A stretch of 64,000 nucleotides of DNA from Burkholderiales bacterium. GTDB lineage: Bacteria; Pseudomonadota; Gammaproteobacteria; Burkholderiales; SG8-39. Under the pieces are notes generated by a model. That model was not told the origin of the DNA and did no database searches. It saw only the letters and a list, made by a program, of their open reading frames with translations. Shown here piece after piece: positions 3,272 to 41,690 of this stretch (the first letter of the stretch is position 1; the number at the start of each line of letters is the position of its first letter). The DNA lies in contig JBBRAI010000007.1 of the NCBI GenBank assembly GCA_038206915.1, forward strand, positions 12,005 to 76,004, given 5' to 3'. Made by a program: the position numbers and the translations under genes.

Positions 3272-4141
3272 TCAGACGGCCGCGGCCGTCGGCACGCCTT
3301 CGCGAACCGTCGGATAGCGCAGGCGCACGCCAAGCTCGGATTTCATGCGCACGTTGACCAGACGGCGCGATTCGCGCATGAAAGACAGCAGCCCTTCCGA
3401 AATCGCGCCGGCCTCGGCCTCTTTACGCGTGATGCGCGGCGGCCGCGGCAAACCGCAACGGTCCGCCACCAGATCGAAGTAGTCGCCCATTTTCATTTCG
3501 CTGTCGTCGCTGGCGTTATAGGCGCGGCCGGCTGCGCCGCGTTCGAGCGCGGCCGCGCAGATTGCGGCGAGGTCGTCGGCGTGAATGTGATTGGTGTAGA
3601 CATCGTCCTGCGCACGCAATACCGGCGCGCCGCGCCTGAGCTGCGCCAGCGGCAGGCGCTCGGCAGCGTAGATACCGGGCACGCGCAGCACGCACACCGC
3701 GGCGCCGATCCGCTTTCCCCAGGCGAGCAGCGTGCGCTCCGCGTCGGCGCGGCGCGCGCCGCGCGCGGTCTGCGGCACCAGCGGCCGGTCCTCGTCCACC
3801 CGGGCGCCGCCGCAATCGCCGTAGACGCCGCTGGTGCTGATGTAGACCAGGCGCCCCGGCGGGTGCTGCGCCAGCGCGGCGATCAGATTGGCACTGCGCT
3901 GGTCGCGCTCGCCGCTGTCGGCGGGCGGCGCAAGGTGCAGCACCAGATCCGCAGCACCTGCCAGCGGCGCCAGCGTCGCCGGATCGTCGAGGTCGCCCGC
4001 GATCGGCTTCGCCCCGAGCGCGGCGATGCGCTCGGCCTGGGCCGGCGTGCGCACCAGGCCGCACACCTGATAGTCGCGCGCGAGCTGCGGCAGCGCGCGC
4101 AGCGCGATATCGCCGCAACCGACGATGAGCAGCTTCTTCAT
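3272..4141 (-). CDS. NAD-dependent epimerase/dehydratase-family (SDR) protein
   Basis: 289 aa. N-terminal Rossmann motif MKKLLIVGCGDIA and extended-SDR-like body. Substrate unknown. Confidence 0.7.
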   Translation of the reverse strand: MKKLLIVGCGDIALRALPQLARDYQVCGLVRTPAQAERIAALGAKPIAGDLDDPATLAPLAGAADLVLHLAPPADSGERDQRSANLIAALAQHPPGRLVYISTSGVYGDCGGARVDEDRPLVPQTARGARRADAERTLLAWGKRIGAAVCVLRVPGIYAAERLPLAQLRRGAPVLRAQDDVYTNHIHADDLAAICAAALERGAAGRAYNASDDSEMKMGDYFDLVADRCGLPRPPRITRKEAEAGAISEGLLSFMRESRRLVNVRMKSELGVRLRYPTVREGVPTAAAV

Positions 4142-4180: not shown

Positions 4181-5212
4181 ATGTCGCATCAAGTCACCAT
4201 TCGACCCAGCGGGCACGTGTTCCACGTCCAGCCCGACGAAACCGTGCTCAGCGCCGCGCTGCGCGAAGGATTCACCCTCGCCTATGGCTGCCGCAACGGC
4301 GCCTGCGGCAGTTGCAAGGGCAAGCTACTCGAGGGCAGGATCGATTACGGCAAGCATGCCGACACCGCGCTTTCCGCCGCCGAGCAGGCAAACGGACTGG
4401 CGCTGTTCTGCGTCGCCCGGCCGCTGGGCGACATCGTGATCGAATGCCGCGAGATCAGTGCAATCAAGGACCAGCAGATCAAGATCCTGCCCTGCCGCGT
4501 GCAAACCATCGAGAATCCGACGCCCGACGTGGCGGTGATTTCGCTCAAACTCCCCGCCAACGAGCGCCTGCAGTACCTGGCCGGGCAGTATATCGAGTTC
4601 ATGCTCAAGGACGGCAAGCGTCGCAGCTATTCCATGGCCAATGCCCCGCATGACGACGCACTGCTGCAGATCCACGTGCGCCACCTGCCCGGCGGCCTGT
4701 TCACCGACCAGGTGTTCGGCAAGATGAAGGCGCGCGACATCCTGCGCTTCGAAGGTCCGCACGGCACGTTTTTTCTGCGCGAGGACAGCGACAAGCCGAT
4801 GCTGCTGCTCGCCAGCGGCACCGGGTTCGCGCCGATCAAGGCGATCGTCGAACATGCGCTGCACAAGGGCATCGCGCGCCCGATGACGCTGTACTGGGGC
4901 GGTCGCCGCCCGCGCGACCTGTACATGGATGAGCTCGCGCGCGGCTGGGCGGCGCAGCACGTGCATTTCAGCTACGCGCCGGTGGTGTCGGACGCGCTGC
5001 CCGAAGACGCTTGGTCCGGGCGCGGCGGGTTCGTGCACCGCGCCGTGATCGAGGATTTCCCCGACCTTTCCGGGCACCAGGTATATGCCTGCGGCGCGCC
5101 GGTGGTGATCGACGCCGCGCGGCGCGACTTCAGCGCGCTATGCGCGCTGCCGCCGGAGGAGTTCTATGCCGACTCGTTCACCACCGAGGCCGACCTGGCC
5201 AAGGTGAAATAG
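4181..5212 (+). CDS. 2Fe-2S ferredoxin / FAD / NAD(P)-binding oxidoreductase (FNR family, CDP-6-deoxy-delta-3,4-glucoseen reductase-like)
   Basis: Starts MSHQVTIRPSG. Plant-type ferredoxin Cys cluster CRNGACGSCK, flavin motif RSYSMAN and an NAD domain LLLASGTGFAP. The part of the track ORF upstream of 4181 is antisense to the SDR gene. Confidence 0.85.
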   Translation: MSHQVTIRPSGHVFHVQPDETVLSAALREGFTLAYGCRNGACGSCKGKLLEGRIDYGKHADTALSAAEQANGLALFCVARPLGDIVIECREISAIKDQQIKILPCRVQTIENPTPDVAVISLKLPANERLQYLAGQYIEFMLKDGKRRSYSMANAPHDDALLQIHVRHLPGGLFTDQVFGKMKARDILRFEGPHGTFFLREDSDKPMLLLASGTGFAPIKAIVEHALHKGIARPMTLYWGGRRPRDLYMDELARGWAAQHVHFSYAPVVSDALPEDAWSGRGGFVHRAVIEDFPDLSGHQVYACGAPVVIDAARRDFSALCALPPEEFYADSFTTEADLAKVK

Positions 5213-35524: not shown

Positions 35525-35869
35525 ATGTCGACCAGCAAGACTCCCAGCGGTTTGAGCATAGAGGACGTGGTCATCGGCGAGGGCGCGGCCGCGGCCGCCG
35601 GCCACAGCGTTACGGTGCACTACACCGGTTGGCTTACAAACGGCAGCAAGTTCGACTCGAGCAAGGACCGAAACGATCCTTTCGTGTTCCATCTGGGGGC
35701 CGGACAGGTGATACGCGGCTGGGACGAGGGCGTACAAGGCATGCTGGTCGGAGGCAAGCGCAAGCTGACCATTCCGCCCGAACTCGGCTACGGCGCACGC
35801 GGCGCAGGCGGCGCGATTCCGCCGAACGCAACCCTGGTGTTCGAGGTCGAACTGCTCGCTGTCGGCTGA
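35525..35869 (+). CDS. FKBP-type peptidyl-prolyl cis-trans isomerase
   Basis: 114 aa. VHYTGWL.NG.KFDSS...F.LG.GQVI.GWDEG..GM..GG.R.L.IP..LGYG is the FKBP core. Confidence 0.92.
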
Positions 35870-35936
35870 GGCCAGGCGCGACGGCAGGTCGACGCATTGC
35901 TACGCAGCCGGATCCGGCAACGCGCCGGCATAGAGA

Positions 35937-36230
35937 TTAGGCATCCTTCGCGTGCGGCTTCGGTGCGTTCATCAGCGAGGGCGTGACGCGCGAACGCGCC
36001 AGATACTCGCGCAGTATCTTGATTGCCGAGCGGTCCAGCGTAGTTCCATGGTGCGGGCGGTGCAGCACATCCTCGTGGCCGTTGAGTTTGACGCGCAGGC
36101 GCGCGCCCGAAAGCGATTCGACTTCAGCACCCAGATGATGCAGCAGCGACTCGATCTCGCGCCAGTGGATATTGCCCGTGATCGGATCGCGGAATATCGC
36201 CTCGATCAGGTGCTCGTGCTTGTGGCTCAT
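35937..36230 (-). CDS. Hypothetical protein with HicA/YcfA-like pattern (orphan)
   Basis: 97 aa (MSHKHEHLIEAIF...). The segment LGAEVESLSGARLRVKLNGHEDVLHRPHHGTTLDRSAIKILREYL resembles the HicA beta-sheet/helix core by eye. No HicB partner is present. Confidence 0.45.
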   Translation of the reverse strand: MSHKHEHLIEAIFRDPITGNIHWREIESLLHHLGAEVESLSGARLRVKLNGHEDVLHRPHHGTTLDRSAIKILREYLARSRVTPSLMNAPKPHAKDA

Positions 36231-36513
36231 GGCGGGCGCCTCCGTACCGGAGTGGGTCTGCGCCCATGATAGCCAAGCCGGCCAGCACTGCAAGCGTCCC
36301 GGCGGTCAGGGTCAGGGGCAGGGCCAGCGTCGAGAGGAGCAGAAGCATCAACAGGCGCTGCACAGGCCTGCTCCATATCCGATGATTCTTGTCGCGCGCG
36401 GCCACGATGCGCGCTCCTGCGGGAATTCACGGACCCGGGCGGGAATCATCGCAGGCAGCACCCGATATTGGCCGCTGCCCGCGGCGATTCGCACCCTTGT
36501 GAACGCAAGCTGC

Positions 36514-36747
36514 CTATTTTTTCATTTCGTCCTTGGCCATGGAATCCTTCTTCATGGCGTCCTTCTTCATGCCGTCGTTTTTCATGCTGTCTTTTTTCAT
36601 CGTGTCTTTCTTCATGCTGTCTTTTTTCATCTCCTCTTTGGCCATGTTGTCTTTGGCCATCGCATCTTTCTTCATGTCGTCAGCGAGCGCGTTGCCGCCG
36701 GCAAGCAGCAGGCTGATGGAAAGCAGGGTTGCAGTGGTCTTGATCAT
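36514..36747 (-). CDS. Secreted methionine-rich pentapeptide-repeat (MXKDX) protein, MrpX-like
   Basis: 77 aa. Signal peptide MIKTTATLLSISLLLAGGNALA, then 11 consecutive M-x-K-(D/E)-x pentapeptides (11 Met in 55 mature residues). Confidence 0.85.
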   Translation of the reverse strand: MIKTTATLLSISLLLAGGNALADDMKKDAMAKDNMAKEEMKKDSMKKDTMKKDSMKNDGMKKDAMKKDSMAKDEMKK

Positions 36748-36815
36748 GGTGATCTCCTCGTTTAGTGGTTGGATGGGTGGACGGCGGTAAAGCCGGTGTA
36801 TCAGGGCAGCCGAGC

Positions 36816-37595
36816 TCAGCTGCCGCCGAACCAGTTGTACCCCTGGTCTTCCCAGTAGCCCCCGGGGTAGGTGTTGGTGACGAAGATCGCCTGGATGTGC
36901 TTCGGATTCTTGTAGCCGAGCTTGGTCGGCATGCGCAGCTTCATCGGAAAGCCATACTTGGGCGGCAGCTGCGCGCCGTCGTAGGTGAGCGTCAGCAGCG
37001 TCTGCGGGTGCAGCGCGGTGGGCATGTCGATGCTGGTGTAGTAATCGTCGGCGCACTTGAAGCCGATGTACCTCGCGCTGGTGTCGGCGCCGACGCGGGC
37101 GAGGAAGTCCGAAAAACGCACGCCGCCCCATTTGCCGATCGCGCTCCAGCCTTCGACGCAGATGTGGCGCGTTACCTGGTCGGTCTGCGGCAGCGCGTTG
37201 AGTTCGGGCAGCGTCCACATGCGTTTGTCGGCGACCATGCCGCCGACTTCCAGACGGTAGCCCGCCGCATCCACCTCGCGGATCTCGTCCTCGCCGTAGT
37301 AGGCGTTGAATGGAAACGGCCGTGTGATCATCGATTCTGGATAGGTCGGCGCGAGCTGATTCGGATCGAACAGCCAGCCCTGCACCCGGTCGTTGAAGCG
37401 CGACACTGTTGTCAGCGCCTGATCGACGCCGTCCTCGTCGGAGATCGCGCAGCCGGTCAGCAGCGACAGGCCGCCGAGCGTGAGTGAACGGCGCAGAAAC
37501 AGGCGTCGCGCGGGCTGCTCGAGGCGGCGCAGCGCCTCCTTCACCACGGCATCGCCGTCCAGCGTCAGTCGTTTGGAAGACTTGAGTATTTTCAT
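36816..37595 (-). CDS. Molybdopterin-dependent oxidoreductase of the YedY/MsrP (sulfite-oxidase fold) family, Tat-exported lipoprotein
   Basis: 259 aa. Twin-arginine leader ARRLFLRRSLTLGGLSLLTGC with lipobox, Mo-ligand Cys context HICVEGWS, and GFPMKLRMPTKLGYKNPKHI. Confidence 0.8.
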   Translation of the reverse strand: MKILKSSKRLTLDGDAVVKEALRRLEQPARRLFLRRSLTLGGLSLLTGCAISDEDGVDQALTTVSRFNDRVQGWLFDPNQLAPTYPESMITRPFPFNAYYGEDEIREVDAAGYRLEVGGMVADKRMWTLPELNALPQTDQVTRHICVEGWSAIGKWGGVRFSDFLARVGADTSARYIGFKCADDYYTSIDMPTALHPQTLLTLTYDGAQLPPKYGFPMKLRMPTKLGYKNPKHIQAIFVTNTYPGGYWEDQGYNWFGGS

Positions 37596-37604
37596 GTTGG
37601 CTCC

Positions 37605-38201
37605 TCAGCGGCCGCGGATCATGGCGAGCAATGTGCGTGGTACCAGCGCCACCATCGCCAGGTGCACCGCGACAAACGCGACCATCGCTGCCATGGCGAA
37701 GAAATGCACGCGGCGTGCGTTTTCGTAGCCGCCCAGCAATTCGCGCAGCAGCGGAAACTGCACTGACTTCCACAGCACCAGGCCCGACAGCACTAGCAGG
37801 ACCGCGTCGACAATCACGAACAGGTAGGCGGCGCGCTGCACCGCGTTGTAATGGCTCAGGTCGTCGTGCGCCAGCTTGCCGCGCAGCGCGTCCACTAGAT
37901 CGGCAATGATCGCGCGCGGCGACAGCGGGAAGAACTTTCGCACGATACGTCCGGTCGCGGCATTGCACAACAGATACACCAGGCCGTTCGCGGCGAGCAG
38001 CCACATCGCGGCAAAATGCCACTGGATTGCGCCGCCGAGCCAGCCGCCGAGCGTAATGTCCTTGGCGAACTTGAAATCGTACAGGGGAGAGGCGTTGTAG
38101 ATGCGCCAGCCGCTCGTGACCATGATCACAACCGCGAGCGCGTTTAGCCAGTGCGTCGCGCGCAGCCAGGCCGGGTGGACTATGCGGTCAGTCTGGTTCA
38201 T
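37605..38201 (-). CDS. Membrane b-type cytochrome (cytochrome b561 / Ni-Fe-hydrogenase b-subunit-like)
   Basis: 198 aa, 4-5 TM segments. Conserved His in TM helices (RATHWLNAL, QWHFAAMW, RRVHFFAM, VAVHLAM). 9-nt gap to the Mo-enzyme gene. Confidence 0.75.
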   Translation of the reverse strand: MNQTDRIVHPAWLRATHWLNALAVVIMVTSGWRIYNASPLYDFKFAKDITLGGWLGGAIQWHFAAMWLLAANGLVYLLCNAATGRIVRKFFPLSPRAIIADLVDALRGKLAHDDLSHYNAVQRAAYLFVIVDAVLLVLSGLVLWKSVQFPLLRELLGGYENARRVHFFAMAAMVAFVAVHLAMVALVPRTLLAMIRGR

Positions 38202-38220
38202 GTCTTCGCTCCGCCCGAAT

Positions 38221-39003
38221 TCAGGACGCTGCGCATTGGCGCGCGCTCAGAGCCTGCAGCACCCCGCCGCTGCGTTCGTCCTGCACGAACGCGACCAGTT
38301 CCAGCCGCGCGCGGTTCCAGTCCGCGGGCAGGGCGATCTCACGCTGCACCTTCGCCGCGCCCGCGACGAGGCGCACAGGTCCGATCCACGCACGCACCAC
38401 GTGATCGTGCTTGAGGGTGGAGCCGCTGTTCTCGCCGCGCGTCACGCTCGACGCGAGGCCGCTCTCGGCAAGCGCCAGATACAGCGCCGCCGGGCCGGCC
38501 GCGGCAAGTGTTTTGGCTTCGGCATCGAGTGTAAGCGAGCCATCGGCTGCGACCGCGGCGCGCACATGGATGGCAGCCGCGGCAGGCGCAGCGTTCAGTT
38601 GCCGAACCTTGTCCGCCAGCGCGCCGCGCCAGGAGCGCAGCTCCGCGCCGCCAACGAAGAACTGGGGCGTATAGACGGTGTCGTGCCGGTTGGTGTGTAC
38701 CAGCCAGCTCTGGCGCTGCTCGAACGCGCTTTGCGCATACGGGTCCTTCCAGCCGATGTAGTCCCAATAGCCGACGTGCAGGGCGAGCGGCACCACAGTG
38801 GCGGTTGGGTCCAGCACCTGGTGCAGGCGGCTGAGCTGCTGATCCGCCGGCGGGCAGCTGGAGCAGCCTTCCGAAGTATAGAGTTCTACCAGCGCCGCGG
38901 TCTTCGGACCGCTTTGCGCTTCACAGGCGGCGAAGCCCGTAAGCGGCAGGGTCGCCGCAAGCGTTGCAACCACCGTACGATGGGCGATACGACGCAGATT
39001 CAT
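38221..39003 (-). CDS. DUF1223-family secreted thioredoxin-like protein (CxxC)
   Basis: 260 aa starting MNLRRIAHRTVVATLAATLPLTGFAA (signal peptide). VELYTSEGCSSCPPAD and HVGYWDYIGWKDPY are the DUF1223 hallmarks as I recall them. Confidence 0.8.
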   Translation of the reverse strand: MNLRRIAHRTVVATLAATLPLTGFAACEAQSGPKTAALVELYTSEGCSSCPPADQQLSRLHQVLDPTATVVPLALHVGYWDYIGWKDPYAQSAFEQRQSWLVHTNRHDTVYTPQFFVGGAELRSWRGALADKVRQLNAAPAAAAIHVRAAVAADGSLTLDAEAKTLAAAGPAALYLALAESGLASSVTRGENSGSTLKHDHVVRAWIGPVRLVAGAAKVQREIALPADWNRARLELVAFVQDERSGGVLQALSARQCAAS

Positions 39004-39060
39004 GGGCAATTCGCCTCCTTTGGCAGTGAAAATCCAGCGCGCTTGTGCTCTCAGGGCTAG

Positions 39061-39087
39061 TTCGCCGGCCGCCGACGAACGGTTACA
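39061..39087 (-). promoter_or_regulatory. ECF-type promoter TGTAACC-N16-CGAA upstream of the DUF1223 operon
   Basis: Minus strand reads tgtaacc gttcgtcggcggccgg cgaa ctagcc. It lies 58 nt upstream of the DUF1223 ATG and has the same motif and spacing as the two sites at 40377-40489. Confidence 0.65.
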
Positions 39088-39141
39088 CGGCGGAGCGAAT
39101 CGCAGCCGATTCCACGCAGCGCGATTACGCCCGCGCACGGA

Positions 39142-39774
39142 CTACCTGTCGCCCCAGACCTCGTGTACCCGGGCGTCGCGGCCGCAGCCGGCGCGGTAGT
39201 ACGAGTAGCGAATCGGGTTCTTCTTGTAGTAGCCCTGGTGATATTCCTCCGCCGGGTAGAACGCGGAAGCGGCAACGACTTCCGTATACACATGCGGCAG
39301 CTTGCCGCTCTTGACCAGTGCGTCGCGGCTCGCGTCGGCGATTTTACGCTCAGTTTCGTTCTGCCAGAAGATGGCGCTGCGGTATTGCGTGCCGACGTCG
39401 CAGAACTGGCGATCTTTCACTGTCGGGTCGATGTGGTGCCAGAAGTAGTCGACCAGCTGCCGATAGCTGACTTTGGCCGGGTCGTAGCGAACACGCACCG
39501 CCTCGGCATGACCGGTGCTGCCGGCGCTGACCTGTGCGTAGGTGGGATTCGGCGTCCTGCCGCCGGTATAACCCGATTCCGCGTCGATCACGCCCGGCAG
39601 CTTCTCGAAGTCCGCTTCCAGACACCAGAAGCAGCCGCCGGCAAAAATAGCGTTCGCCGTGCCGCTGGCACCCGACGCGGCGCCCGCCGGCGCGGCGGCT
39701 GCGGCAAGACCCGCGCCGCCCAGCAGCAGCAACAACGCAGCGACAAAACCGGCCACGCGCACACCCGCCCTCAT
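39142..39774 (-). CDS. msrA: Peptide-methionine (S)-S-oxide reductase MsrA, exported form
   Basis: 210 aa. N-terminal hydrophobic leader (MRAGVRVAGFVAALLLLLGGAGLAAAAA), catalytic GCFWC, and the MsrA core GHAEAV...YHQ.Y. Confidence 0.9.
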   Translation of the reverse strand: MRAGVRVAGFVAALLLLLGGAGLAAAAAPAGAASGASGTANAIFAGGCFWCLEADFEKLPGVIDAESGYTGGRTPNPTYAQVSAGSTGHAEAVRVRYDPAKVSYRQLVDYFWHHIDPTVKDRQFCDVGTQYRSAIFWQNETERKIADASRDALVKSGKLPHVYTEVVAASAFYPAEEYHQGYYKKNPIRYSYYRAGCGRDARVHEVWGDR

Positions 39775-40286
39775 GCGCGCAACTCCGGCAGTTTATCCGT
39801 GCGCAACACGAAATTCAGCGCCACGCCGTTGTTGCAATAGCGTTTGCCGGTGGGTGCCGGACCATCGTCGAAGACGTGGCCCTGGTGCCCGCCGCAACGC
39901 GCGCAGTGATATTCGGTGCGCGGAAAGAGCAATTTGTAGTCGGTTCTGGTGGTCACGGCGCCGGGCAGCGGTCGCCAGAAACTCGGCCAGCCGGTACCAC
40001 TGTCGTACTTGGCGCTGCTGTCGAACAGCGGCAGACTGCACGCGGCGCAGACGAAGGTGCCGTCGTGCTTTTCCTGGTTCAGCGGGCTGCTGCCGGGGCG
40101 TTCCGTTGCTTCATCGAACAGCACGCGATACGCCGCCGCCGGCAGCAGAGCGGCCCATTCGGCCTTAGTCTTGCGCAGCGCCGGCCCGGCGCCATCGGCC
40201 GCGCCGGCCGCGCCGGCGTTGATTATGTGCAGTGCTGACAGGCCCGACAGGCCGAACAGCCATTTGAGGGAGCGACGACGGTCCAT
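39771..40286 (-). CDS. msrB: Peptide-methionine (R)-S-oxide reductase MsrB, exported form (Tat-like leader)
   Basis: 171 aa. MDRRRSLKWLFGLSGLSALHII leader, Zn CxxC pairs (CAAC, CARC), GWPSF and catalytic RYCNNG. ATGA overlap with msrA. Confidence 0.9.
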   Translation of the reverse strand: MDRRRSLKWLFGLSGLSALHIINAGAAGAADGAGPALRKTKAEWAALLPAAAYRVLFDEATERPGSSPLNQEKHDGTFVCAACSLPLFDSSAKYDSGTGWPSFWRPLPGAVTTRTDYKLLFPRTEYHCARCGGHQGHVFDDGPAPTGKRYCNNGVALNFVLRTDKLPELRA

Positions 40287-40376
40287 GACATTCTCCGGAT
40301 GATTCTGCCTCTATACATTTATGCGACGGCGCGCTTCACTCGGGCAGCGTTGCGTTCGGCGCGATATGGAGGCTAG

Positions 40377-40403
40377 TTCGGCGCGAACTGGCGTGCGGTT
40401 ACA
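40377..40403 (-). promoter_or_regulatory. ECF-type promoter TGTAACC-N16-CGAA upstream of msrB-msrA
   Basis: Minus strand reads tgtaacc gcacgccagttcgcgc cgaa ctagcc, about 90 nt upstream of the msrB ATG. It shares even the flanking ctagcc with the 39061 site. Confidence 0.65.
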
Positions 40404-40462
40404 TGCTGGTGCACAATTAAATCCCCGGCGGCGGGCACGTATCCGACTTTTTTCCAGCAGCT

Positions 40463-40489
40463 TGTAACAAAAGGCGTCGATGGAGCGAA
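40463..40489 (+). promoter_or_regulatory. ECF-type promoter TGTAACA-N16-CGAA (putative autoregulated sigma promoter)
   Basis: Plus strand reads tgtaaca aaaggcgtcgatggag cgaa. The -10 element overlaps codons 3-4 of the track ORF for the sigma factor. Confidence 0.55.
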
Positions 40490-41052
40490 TGCAAGGGACA
40501 GCCCGGCTGAACGCGGGCGAAAACAGGCTGAAGCTACTCCTGTTGCGCGGGCTTTCCGGCGAGGAGTCGGCCTATCACGCGTTCCTGCAGGAGTTGAGCG
40601 CGCATTTGCGCGCTTTCCTGAGGCGGCGCCTGGCGCGCTTGCCGGACGAAGTGGAGGACCTGGTGCAGGAATCGCTGCTGGCGGTACACAACCAACGTCA
40701 TACCTACGACGCGGGCCAGCCGCTGACGGCGTGGGTGCACGCGATCGCAAAGTACAAGCTGGTGGATCTGCTGCGCCGGCGTTCGAAACGCGAACTGCTC
40801 AGCGATCCGCTGGACGAGGAGTTCGGTCTGGCCGCGGCCTCGGACACGGATGCCGCGGATGCGCGCCGCGATCTGGGCCGGCTGCTGGCGCGCCTGCCCG
40901 AACGCCAGCGCCTGCCCATCGTGCATATGAAACTCGAGGGTCTGTCGGTGGCGCAGACCGCCGAGCTCACGGGCATGTCGGCCTCCGCAGTCAAGGTAGG
41001 CGTACATCGCGGCCTGAAGGCGCTGGCGGCGATGATACGAGAGGCGCCATGA
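40480..41052 (+). CDS. sigF: ECF RNA polymerase sigma factor (SigF-type, partner of NrsF)
   Basis: Sigma-70 region 2 ([20 protein letters not shown]...[19 protein letters not shown]) and region 4 ([44 protein letters not shown]). The 5' end is uncertain because of the promoter overlap. The name is inferred from the NrsF partner. Confidence 0.8.
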
Positions 41053-41690
41053 GAACCGAAGAGCTGGTCAGCATGCTTGCGACCGGTGCCGGCGCGGTAG
41101 CGCCGAACCAGGTCGCGCGCCGCCATGCGCTTGCGCTGGGATGGGGCATTCTGGGCGCCGCGCTGCTGATGGCCATCCTGCTCGGCCCGCGCCCTGATCT
41201 TGCCCGGGCGGTTCTGCTGCCCATGTTCTGGGTGAAGCTCGTGTTTGTCGCGTGCATCGCGGCGGGCAGCCTGGCCGCGGCGCTGCGACTGGCGCGCCCG
41301 GGGCGCAAGCTTGCCTGGGTGCCGGCAGCGGTGGCCGCGCCGGTGCTCGCGATCTGGCTGCTTTCGATGATCGTGCTGGTGCCAGCCGAGGCGGCGCAGC
41401 GCGAAATACTGTTCTTCGGTAGTACCTGGGACGTATGCCCGTTCCTGATCGCCACCTTGTCGGTGCCCGGATTTGTCGCGGCGATGTGGGCGATGCAGGG
41501 ACTTGCGCCCACTCGCCTGCGTCTCGCCGGCGCGGCGGCAGGGCTGTTTGCCGGATCCATGGGCGCGCTGGTGTACTGCCTGCACTGTCCGGAAATGGGC
41601 GCGCCTTTCATCGGTGTCTGGTATCTGCTCGGCATGCTGATACCTGCTGCCGCCGGCGCGCTGCTCGGTCCGCGCCTGCTGCGCTGGTAG
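41049..41690 (+). CDS. nrsF: NrsF-family (DUF1109) membrane anti-sigma factor
   Basis: 213 aa starting [17 protein letters not shown]. Six TM segments and a conserved Cys pair region (VCPF, CLHCPEM). ATGA overlap with the sigma gene. Confidence 0.8.

Follow-up and report, generated by a model that had tools for sequence, protein, structure and literature searches.

The 64,000-nucleotide stretch of Burkholderiales contig JBBRAI010000007.1 analyzed here (the window) carries, on its minus strand, a small gene for a methionine-rich peptide built of tandem pentapeptides behind a signal peptide. This peptide is very probably a sacrificial Met sink of the MrpX type, its export, oxidation, re-reduction and induction being proposed by analogy with characterized homologues. 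The hallmarks of an MrpX-type system are present in the window: a high content of Met and charged residues in the peptide, a molybdenum (Mo) enzyme and a cytochrome encoded in the same operon, and a divergent SigF/NrsF gene pair with promoter motifs. An earlier note on this DNA (the original prediction) had proposed a regenerable oxidant sink like MrpX; this proposal draws support from a match to the TIGR02953 family and from the ECF16 (extracytoplasmic function) sigma factor, msr and Mo-enzyme genes in the vicinity. Peptides of the MXKDX kind are already curated and have been studied experimentally (MrpX, BcrX), and the window adds an ordinary example.

A pentapeptide repeat gene of the MXKDX family

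The peptide gene and its parts are as follows.

36514-36747, minus strand: MXKDX-repeat (MrpX-type) peptide precursor gene, stop codon included (translation, TIGR02953 match, position in 70 of 80 related loci)
36682-36747, minus strand: Sec-type signal peptide, residues 1-22, MIKTTATLLSISLLLAGGNALA before DD (read by eye)
36517-36675, minus strand: repeat array of ten M-x-K-(D/E)-x pentapeptides and a terminal MKK, 11 Met in all (register, Tandem Repeats Finder)
36754-36759, minus strand: Shine-Dalgarno sequence GAGGAG, 6 nt 5' of the peptide ATG (read from the sequence)

Translation of the minus strand from 36514 to 36747 gives a 77-residue precursor, MIKTTATLLSISLLLAGGNALADDMKKDAMAKDNMAKEEMKKDSMKKDTMKKDSMKNDGMKKDAMKKDSMAKDEMKK, identical to the one previously proposed. 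The signal peptide had been called canonical, and reading by eye agrees: a basic n-region (MIK) is followed by a hydrophobic core and by A-L-A at the cleavage site. Inspection of the signal sequence revealed neither a Cys nor a twin arginine, and homologues show the same pattern. Met residues occur at positions 25, 30 and so on to 75, all ten Met-Met gaps being equal to 5; the chance that 11 Met placed randomly in 55 residues fall into a perfect period of 5 is 5/C(55,11) = 4e-11. The earlier description of 11 perfect M-x-K-(D/E)-x units holds for the number and spacing of the Met residues, but not for the units themselves, which amount to ten full pentapeptides plus MKK, one of them (MKNDG) having N instead of K at position 3. 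Likewise, the Met content of 20% given previously is that of the mature chain (11/55), the figure for the precursor being 15.6% (12/77). The 55 residues of the mature chain include 11 Met, 18 Lys, 11 Asp and 3 Glu, with K, D and E together accounting for 32/55 (58%); a composition count found zero aromatic residues, zero His and zero Cys in it. In keeping with its Lys and Met content, the gene has a G+C content of 48%, against 64% for the window. Three plus-strand open reading frames (ORFs) lie over the peptide gene (36172-36765, 36468-36716 and 36533-36790). Synteny, the signal peptide and the Shine-Dalgarno sequence all belong to the minus strand, and these frames were therefore set aside as products of antisense read-through in a G+C-rich genome.

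The peptide matches the NCBIfam model TIGR02953, "pentapeptide MXKDX repeat protein", with 77.6 bits (E = 5.3e-22; cut-off 41). The match spans residues 5-75 of the peptide and positions 4-78 of the 78-position profile, and the architecture is that of the family, a signal peptide (assigned by eye) followed by tandem M-x-K-D-x units. In a Pfam search of the window proteins no model matched the peptide. When used as a query against a representative library, the peptide retrieved 436 clusters (50% identity) at E <= 1e-3. This number overestimates the size of the family, since some of the clusters are low-complexity false positives; P0031, P0053 and P0056, for example, were rejected as unrelated, eukaryotic-looking long pentapeptide proteins of low complexity.

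Conservation of the peptide gene beside the Mo enzyme

The neighborhood was compared in 80 genome loci fetched with the Mo enzyme as query and originating from Betaproteobacteria, Pseudomonas and assorted metagenome-assembled genomes. A cytochrome b561 gene lies directly upstream of the Mo-enzyme gene in 79 of them, and in 70 a complete Met-rich peptide with a signal peptide is encoded on the same strand, 2-201 nt 3' of the Mo enzyme. Among the remaining loci, L013 contains a 38-residue miniature with 3 Met (about 4451-4567) and L034 is cut by the contig end. The 70 complete peptides have 10-19 Met each (median 13). Since 89% of all their Met-Met gaps equal 5, and the register is perfect in 29 of the 70 peptides, the strict five-residue register is the norm of the family and not a peculiarity of the window peptide, which it does not set apart. 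Apart from composition and period, the sequences of the relatives' peptides are poorly conserved. The genes flanking the cassette vary: sigF-nrsF was found in 20 of the 80 loci, msrA in 29, msrB in 11 and a DUF1223 gene in 9, in which it lies between sigF and the cytochrome b gene. In other bacteria the cytochrome b-Mo enzyme-peptide cassette is under the control of a two-component system.

The position of the peptide gene within the cassette also differs between lineages, as judged from a plasmid of Burkholderia sp. PAMC 28687 (L081, 3297-3660), where an annotated MXKDX gene stands upstream of the cytochrome b and Mo-enzyme genes in a Brucella-like order. A GTAACC-N16-CGAA motif begins 115 nt before the start codon of that peptide.

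At the DNA level, Tandem Repeats Finder reported periods of 15, 30 and 45 nt in the peptide gene, with 72-89% matches. The mean pairwise identity of the 15-nt units is only 68%, with AAA/AAG and GAC/GAT codons mixed, and the longest exact repeat in the array is 21 nt, at an offset of 30 nt. The divergence of the units and the mixture of synonymous codons indicate that the periodicity is maintained at the protein level; the array is not a fresh microsatellite or a recent homogeneous expansion of DNA. Changes in unit number do nonetheless take place. In the closest relative with flanks (L001, Mo enzyme 89% identical), the peptide gene is 83% identical to that of the window and differs by one clean, in-frame 15-nt indel, corresponding to one unit. 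Together with the range from 3 to 19 Met per peptide among relatives, this comparison bears out the copy-number variation by slippage that had been anticipated: unit-number change is real and recurrent.

The gene cluster and its predicted control by SigF

The peptide gene is the last of a six-gene cluster on the minus strand, the order being MsrB, MsrA, DUF1223, cytochrome b561, Mo oxidoreductase and peptide, with gaps of no more than 139 nt. The cluster is divergent from a plus-strand gene pair for an ECF sigma factor and NrsF.

39771-40286, minus strand: methionine sulfoxide reductase MsrB with a Tat-like (twin-arginine translocation) N-terminus (MDRRRSLKWL...), periplasmic form (TIGR00357, 136.5 bits; N-terminus read)
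39142-39774, minus strand: methionine sulfoxide reductase MsrA with an N-terminal Sec-like signal peptide, periplasmic form (TIGR00401, 193 bits; N-terminus read)
38221-39003, minus strand: exported DUF1223 protein with a CSSC (CxxC) motif (PF06764, 4.5e-55)
37605-38201, minus strand: membrane cytochrome b561, 198 residues (PF01292, 2.2e-26)
36816-37595, minus strand: molybdopterin oxidoreductase, 259 residues, sulfite-oxidase/YedY superfamily, C3567 type (PF00174, 1.3e-29)
40480-41052, plus strand: ECF sigma factor of the SigF/ECF16 type (NF009188, 302 bits)
41049-41690, plus strand: NrsF (DUF1109) membrane anti-sigma factor (PF06532, 8.2e-69)

Only 9 nt separate the cytochrome b561 gene from the Mo-enzyme gene, and the peptide gene begins 68 nt 3' of the latter. 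Judging from their N-termini, the MsrA and MsrB proteins of the cluster are probably periplasmic. No DsbD/CcdA-type supplier of reductant was seen in the immediate flanks. The true start of the DUF1223 protein is likely the ATG at 39003, with AAAGGAGG ahead of it; the protein could be a thiol-redox partner of the exported MsrA and MsrB. Cytochrome b561 is the presumed donor of electrons from quinol to the Mo enzyme. The NrsF protein scores 134.9 bits against NF042994, below the equivalog cut-off of 300. Just downstream of the peptide gene, on the minus strand, is a HicA-toxin-like ORF (35937-36293; PF07927, 27 bits, exactly the gathering score), which keeps its position in L001 and L002. Scans of the whole 64-kb window for Rfam families (gathering thresholds) and for tRNAs found nothing; the empty Rfam scan implies that no molybdenum cofactor riboswitch is present.

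Candidate promoters were sought with the ECF16 consensus (T/C)GTAAC-N17-CGAA (PMC8315932). The 64 kb contain exactly three copies of GTAAC-N17-CGAA, against an expectation of 0.25, and none of 100 shuffles reached three. All three copies are intergenic, within the cluster, and oriented toward its operons. They are listed below with two RNA hairpins.

40377-40402, minus strand: ECF16 promoter motif TGTAACC-N16-CGAA upstream of msrB-msrA (motif scan)
39061-39086, minus strand: ECF16 promoter motif TGTAACC-N16-CGAA upstream of DUF1223-cytochrome b-Mo enzyme-peptide (motif scan)
40464-40489, plus strand: ECF16 promoter motif TGTAAC-N17-CGAA(T) upstream of sigF, suggesting autoregulation (kept in 15 related loci)
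36437-36496, minus strand: G+C-rich long hairpin of about 25 bp with no U-tract, starting about 18 nt past the peptide stop codon (folding)
36805-36824, minus strand: 8-bp hairpin over the Mo-gene stop codon, between the Mo gene and the peptide gene (86-nt stretch, z = -2.7)

The second motif falls between msrA and the actual start of DUF1223, which are 139 nt apart. Nearly all of the approximately 20 related loci with sigF/nrsF have a divergent pair of ECF16 motifs, or at least the motif on the operon side. From the placement and conservation of the motifs, the peptide gene is predicted to be co-transcribed with the DUF1223, cytochrome b and Mo-enzyme genes from a SigF-dependent promoter, and the whole set of genes is predicted, in silico, to be under SigF/NrsF control through three promoters. 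A scan of the 35800-41200 interval for sigma-70 promoters gave no match.

The listed ATG of sigF (40480) falls within the spacer of the conserved promoter (window 40464-40545 and the equivalents in L005-L075), and the first codons listed, M-Q/E-R-I/M, correspond to the -10 element read in frame. Conservation at the protein level starts some 12 codons later, and codon 10 in homologues is CTG, TTG, GTG, ATG or TTT. Translation probably begins some 9 codons past 40480, and the annotated N-terminus of this sigma factor family may be some 9 codons too long; the NF009188 profile starts at the same place.

The 121-nt stretch that includes the hairpin past the peptide gene folds with -61.4 kcal/mol (z = -3.56), and none of 200 shuffles folds as well. 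This structure probably marks the 3' end of the operon transcript or stabilizes it; it could be a variant of a Rho-independent-like terminator, an mRNA stabilizer for a small gene with very high expression, or an element resembling repetitive extragenic palindromes (REP-like). "Terminator-like" matches inside the repeat array (plus strand, 36536-36575) were discarded as artefacts of the repeat.

The neighboring molybdenum enzyme

The original prediction placed the peptide gene immediately downstream of a gene for a YedY/MsrP-type reductase. The two genes are indeed adjacent and the Mo enzyme belongs to the same superfamily, but it is no orthologue of MsrP: the equivalog model for MsrP, NF003767, gives it 72.9 bits (cut-off 207), over residues 108-256 only, and its partner is a cytochrome b561 and not an MsrQ-type protein, the Pfam search giving a match of the partner to PF01292 and to no MsrQ-type family. 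The C3567 protein of uropathogenic Escherichia coli (UPEC) is likewise below the cut-off of this model, with 71.2 bits, and the sequence comparisons identify the window enzyme as a C3567-type paralogue. More than 7,900 proteins match it at E <= 1e-60, the best match being a metagenomic sequence 93% identical to it; among the matches listed, those with a name come from metagenome-assembled genomes of Burkholderiales or Betaproteobacteria. Its nearest solved structure is E. coli YedY (1xdq, E = 4.7e-13), with the CVEGWS motif containing the Mo-ligand Cys aligned. By analogy, the enzyme is presumed to be the methionine sulfoxide reductase that acts on the peptide.

The N-terminus of the Mo enzyme exhibits a Tat motif, RRLFL, and then a lipobox, LLTGC (residues about 29-50). 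A Tat motif followed by an L(T/S)GC lipobox is found in 81/81 homologues, including UPEC C3567 (LTGC, then D). From these signals, the enzymes of this clade are probably exported by the Tat pathway and tethered to the membrane as lipoproteins, beside their cytochrome. MsrP is a soluble enzyme. No mention of the lipoprotein nature of this clade was found in the literature cited here.

Comparison with characterized systems

One experimentally studied member of the family is MrpX of Azospira suillum PS, whose SigF/NrsF system detects reactive chlorine species and switches on yedY1Z1-mrpX. The MrpX protein has 20% Met, 44% charged residues and a signal peptide, and chlorite or hypochlorite induces it 20-60-fold; it is oxidized in vivo and back in its reduced form within an hour, and the purified protein is oxidized by hypochlorous acid (HOCl) (PMC4436054). 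In genomes, YedY is often linked to MrpX, SigF/NrsF, msrA and msrB, also in UPEC and Brucella (PMC4436054), and the MsrA and MsrB encoded with such systems are predicted to be periplasmic (PMC4623255). The link between the window peptide and MrpX goes through the literature, in which MXKDX proteins are equated with MrpX homologues (PMC8315932, PMC8550376). As far as can be compared from the published description, A. suillum MrpX (Dsui_0158) is, like the window peptide, a small, mostly charged peptide with a signal peptide and about 20% Met. In both organisms the peptide gene comes last, after those for a membrane cytochrome and a Tat-exported Mo oxidoreductase, and is accompanied by a divergent sigF-nrsF pair with a GTAAC...CGAA promoter. 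Unlike its A. suillum counterpart, the window cluster includes genes for an exported MsrB, MsrA and DUF1223, together with two additional SigF-type promoters, and lies outside any perchlorate-reduction island.

In Brucella melitensis, BcrX is described as an "MXKDX repeat protein" and is induced by HOCl, in an operon that an ECF16 sigma factor transcribes, the promoters having TGTAAC at -35 and GCGAA(A/T) at -10 (PMC8315932). The window sigF promoter, TGTAAC-N16-GCGAAT, equals PbcrS of the BcrS/AbcS ECF16 pair hexamer for hexamer (PMC8315932). BcrX resembles the window peptide by description; however, its gene comes first in the operon (bcrXQP), whereas that of the window comes last (cytochrome b-Mo enzyme-peptide).

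The order found in the window is also that of c3566 (cytochrome b), c3567 (Mo enzyme) and c3568 (Met-rich peptide) of UPEC strain CFT073, which protect against oxidants, the c3566 and c3567 mutants being oxidant-sensitive (PMC8550376). C3567 and the window Mo enzyme are 58% identical (E = 1e-108) and both carry the Tat motif and an LTGC lipobox; the alignment of C3568 with the window peptide has an E value of about 1e-6. The register of C3568 is, however, degenerate, the protein contains Cys and His, and it scores 35.2 bits with TIGR02953, below the cut-off of 41. Another difference is that the UPEC cassette responds to a two-component system and is co-transcribed with hlyCABD, and that its phenotype concerns peroxides (PMC8550376). 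As for the MsrPQ (YedYZ) system of E. coli, the likeness lies in a periplasmic Mo-pterin enzyme with the sulfite-oxidase fold that is fed by a membrane haem protein. The window enzyme differs in its length (259 versus about 334 residues), in being a predicted lipoprotein, in its cytochrome b561 partner and in the reversed order of the genes.

The proposed oxidant sink and its alternatives

By analogy with these systems, the precursor would be exported by the Sec pathway and cleaved after ALA, yielding a 55-residue charged chain (18 K, 14 D/E) with 11 exposed thioethers. Hypochlorite and related oxidants reaching the periplasm would convert Met residues of the peptide to Met sulfoxide, thereby sparing essential envelope proteins. 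Re-reduction could follow two routes, one through the membrane-tethered Mo enzyme, with electrons drawn from quinol via cytochrome b561, and the other through the exported MsrA and MsrB of the cluster, with DUF1223 as a possible thiol-redox partner. Oxidant stress would relieve the inhibition of the ECF16 sigma factor SigF by NrsF, and SigF would then transcribe msrB-msrA, DUF1223-cytochrome b-Mo enzyme-peptide and its own operon from the three TGTAAC-N17-CGAA promoters. MsrP itself prefers clustered Met sulfoxides in polar, unfolded sequence (bioRxiv 10.1101/243626). An amphipathic helix was considered for the mature chain and rejected: at 100 degrees the hydrophobic moment is the same as the mean of the shuffles, and a peak is seen only at 72 degrees. 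The chain lacks an amphipathic face whether it is folded or not, and all its Met residues would be exposed to solvent.

Several observations weigh against a sink tied to the Mo enzyme in this manner. AlphaFold2, run on the single sequence, draws one continuous helix over residues 2-76 (pLDDT, the predicted local distance difference test, 85), so that neither the unfolded chain assumed in the original prediction nor the "natively unfolded" part of the published MrpX model is established for this peptide. Single-sequence AlphaFold2 commonly draws helices for low-complexity chains rich in K, E, A and M. The Mo enzyme falls short of the MsrP equivalog model, and the Met sulfoxide reductase activity attributed to its clade is an inference by analogy. 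Nor does the enzyme depend on the peptide, since in L002 (Mo enzyme 86% identical) the Mo gene is followed straight by the HicA-like gene with the peptide gene absent (3449-3552), and since the L013 peptide has only 3 Met. Conversely, the family includes members, as in Bradyrhizobium, whose genes do not lie near one for a Mo enzyme. Finally, the UPEC data consist of phenotypes only, and the protection observed is against peroxides and not chlorine species (PMC8550376).

A different use for the Met residues would be a periplasmic buffer for soft metals, their thioethers binding Cu(I) or Ag(I) as in CopA/PcoA, PcoE/SilE, CusF and CopI, either in place of oxidant scavenging or in addition to it. 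Although the Met density is very high and the peptide weakly matches the Met-rich part of CopI (E = 0.00097), the score of 18.9 bits is far from the cut-off of 200 of the CopI model (NF047895) and the match is compositional. Some family members have His or Cys in their repeats, for example in MHKD and CMKKD units, but the window peptide has neither. Known Cu/Ag sites use MxxM, MxM or MxxH motifs, unlike the i,i+5 spacing seen here. There are no copper or silver resistance genes in the flanks examined, and across the 80 loci the conserved partners comprise enzymes of the Msr type and a regulator that responds to oxidants, either ECF16 or two-component. Metal binding, which the original prediction had entertained, thus appears highly improbable. 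The AlphaFold2 helix suggests yet another role, that of a helix-to-coil redox switch or protective hydrophilin: a charged single alpha-helix would lose its structure upon Met oxidation and serve mainly as a sensor, a decoy or a chaperone-like shield, for instance by modulating NrsF or the Mo enzyme, and less as a stoichiometric sink for bulk oxidant. Met residues would lie on all faces of such a helix, which has no amphipathic moment at 100 degrees, and MrpX was likened to the hydrophilin Sip18 by Melnyk et al. (PMC4436054). Opposite-charge pairs at i,i+3 or i,i+4 number 21, compared with 17.4 +/- 3.2 in shuffles, but this excess is only about one standard deviation. The helix itself may reflect the tendency of the single-sequence prediction with such chains, and the poor conservation of sequence beyond composition and period is easier to reconcile with a bulk sink than with a surface for specific interactions. 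On balance, this role seems decidedly unlikely.

That the ORF is spurious, a non-functional, low-complexity product of a 15-nt DNA repeat, could be imagined from its short length, its low complexity and the ORFs overlapping it on the opposite strand. This idea is effectively refuted by the pattern of conservation, and its probability is next to nil: the position and strand of the ORF are kept in 70/80 loci spanning Betaproteobacteria and Pseudomonas, units with different synonymous codons retain the peptide pattern, and the L001 indel is an exact multiple of 15 nt, in frame. Moreover, the gene has a good Shine-Dalgarno sequence and a signal peptide, and family members have been seen as proteins (PMC4436054; Asaia released proteome, PMC12502724). 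More speculatively, several elements may be joined in a reading in which the register is itself functional and more than a by-product of unit duplication, the peptide being a soluble single helix or rod, unwound by oxidation and processively threaded past the membrane-tethered Mo lipoprotein, within a cassette mechanistically distinct from MsrPQ and possibly also buffering Cu(I)/Ag(I). The five-residue register is kept across hundreds of family members, and a period of 5 may maximize Met on a charged chain without creating an amphipathic helix or strand face. As a whole, this combination is unlikely.

Significance

The sacrificial Met sink favored here would make the window one more example, from an uncultured member of the Burkholderiales, of envelope protection against hypochlorite and related oxidants, a system with a bearing on bleach, killing by neutrophils and (per)chlorate respiration. 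Across the loci compared, the most consistent partners of the MXKDX peptide are a predicted lipoprotein, paralogous to MsrP, and the cytochrome b561 that would feed it, not canonical MsrPQ. The resulting three-gene cassette of cytochrome b, Mo enzyme and peptide is widespread and is connected to a regulator of either the ECF16 or the two-component type.

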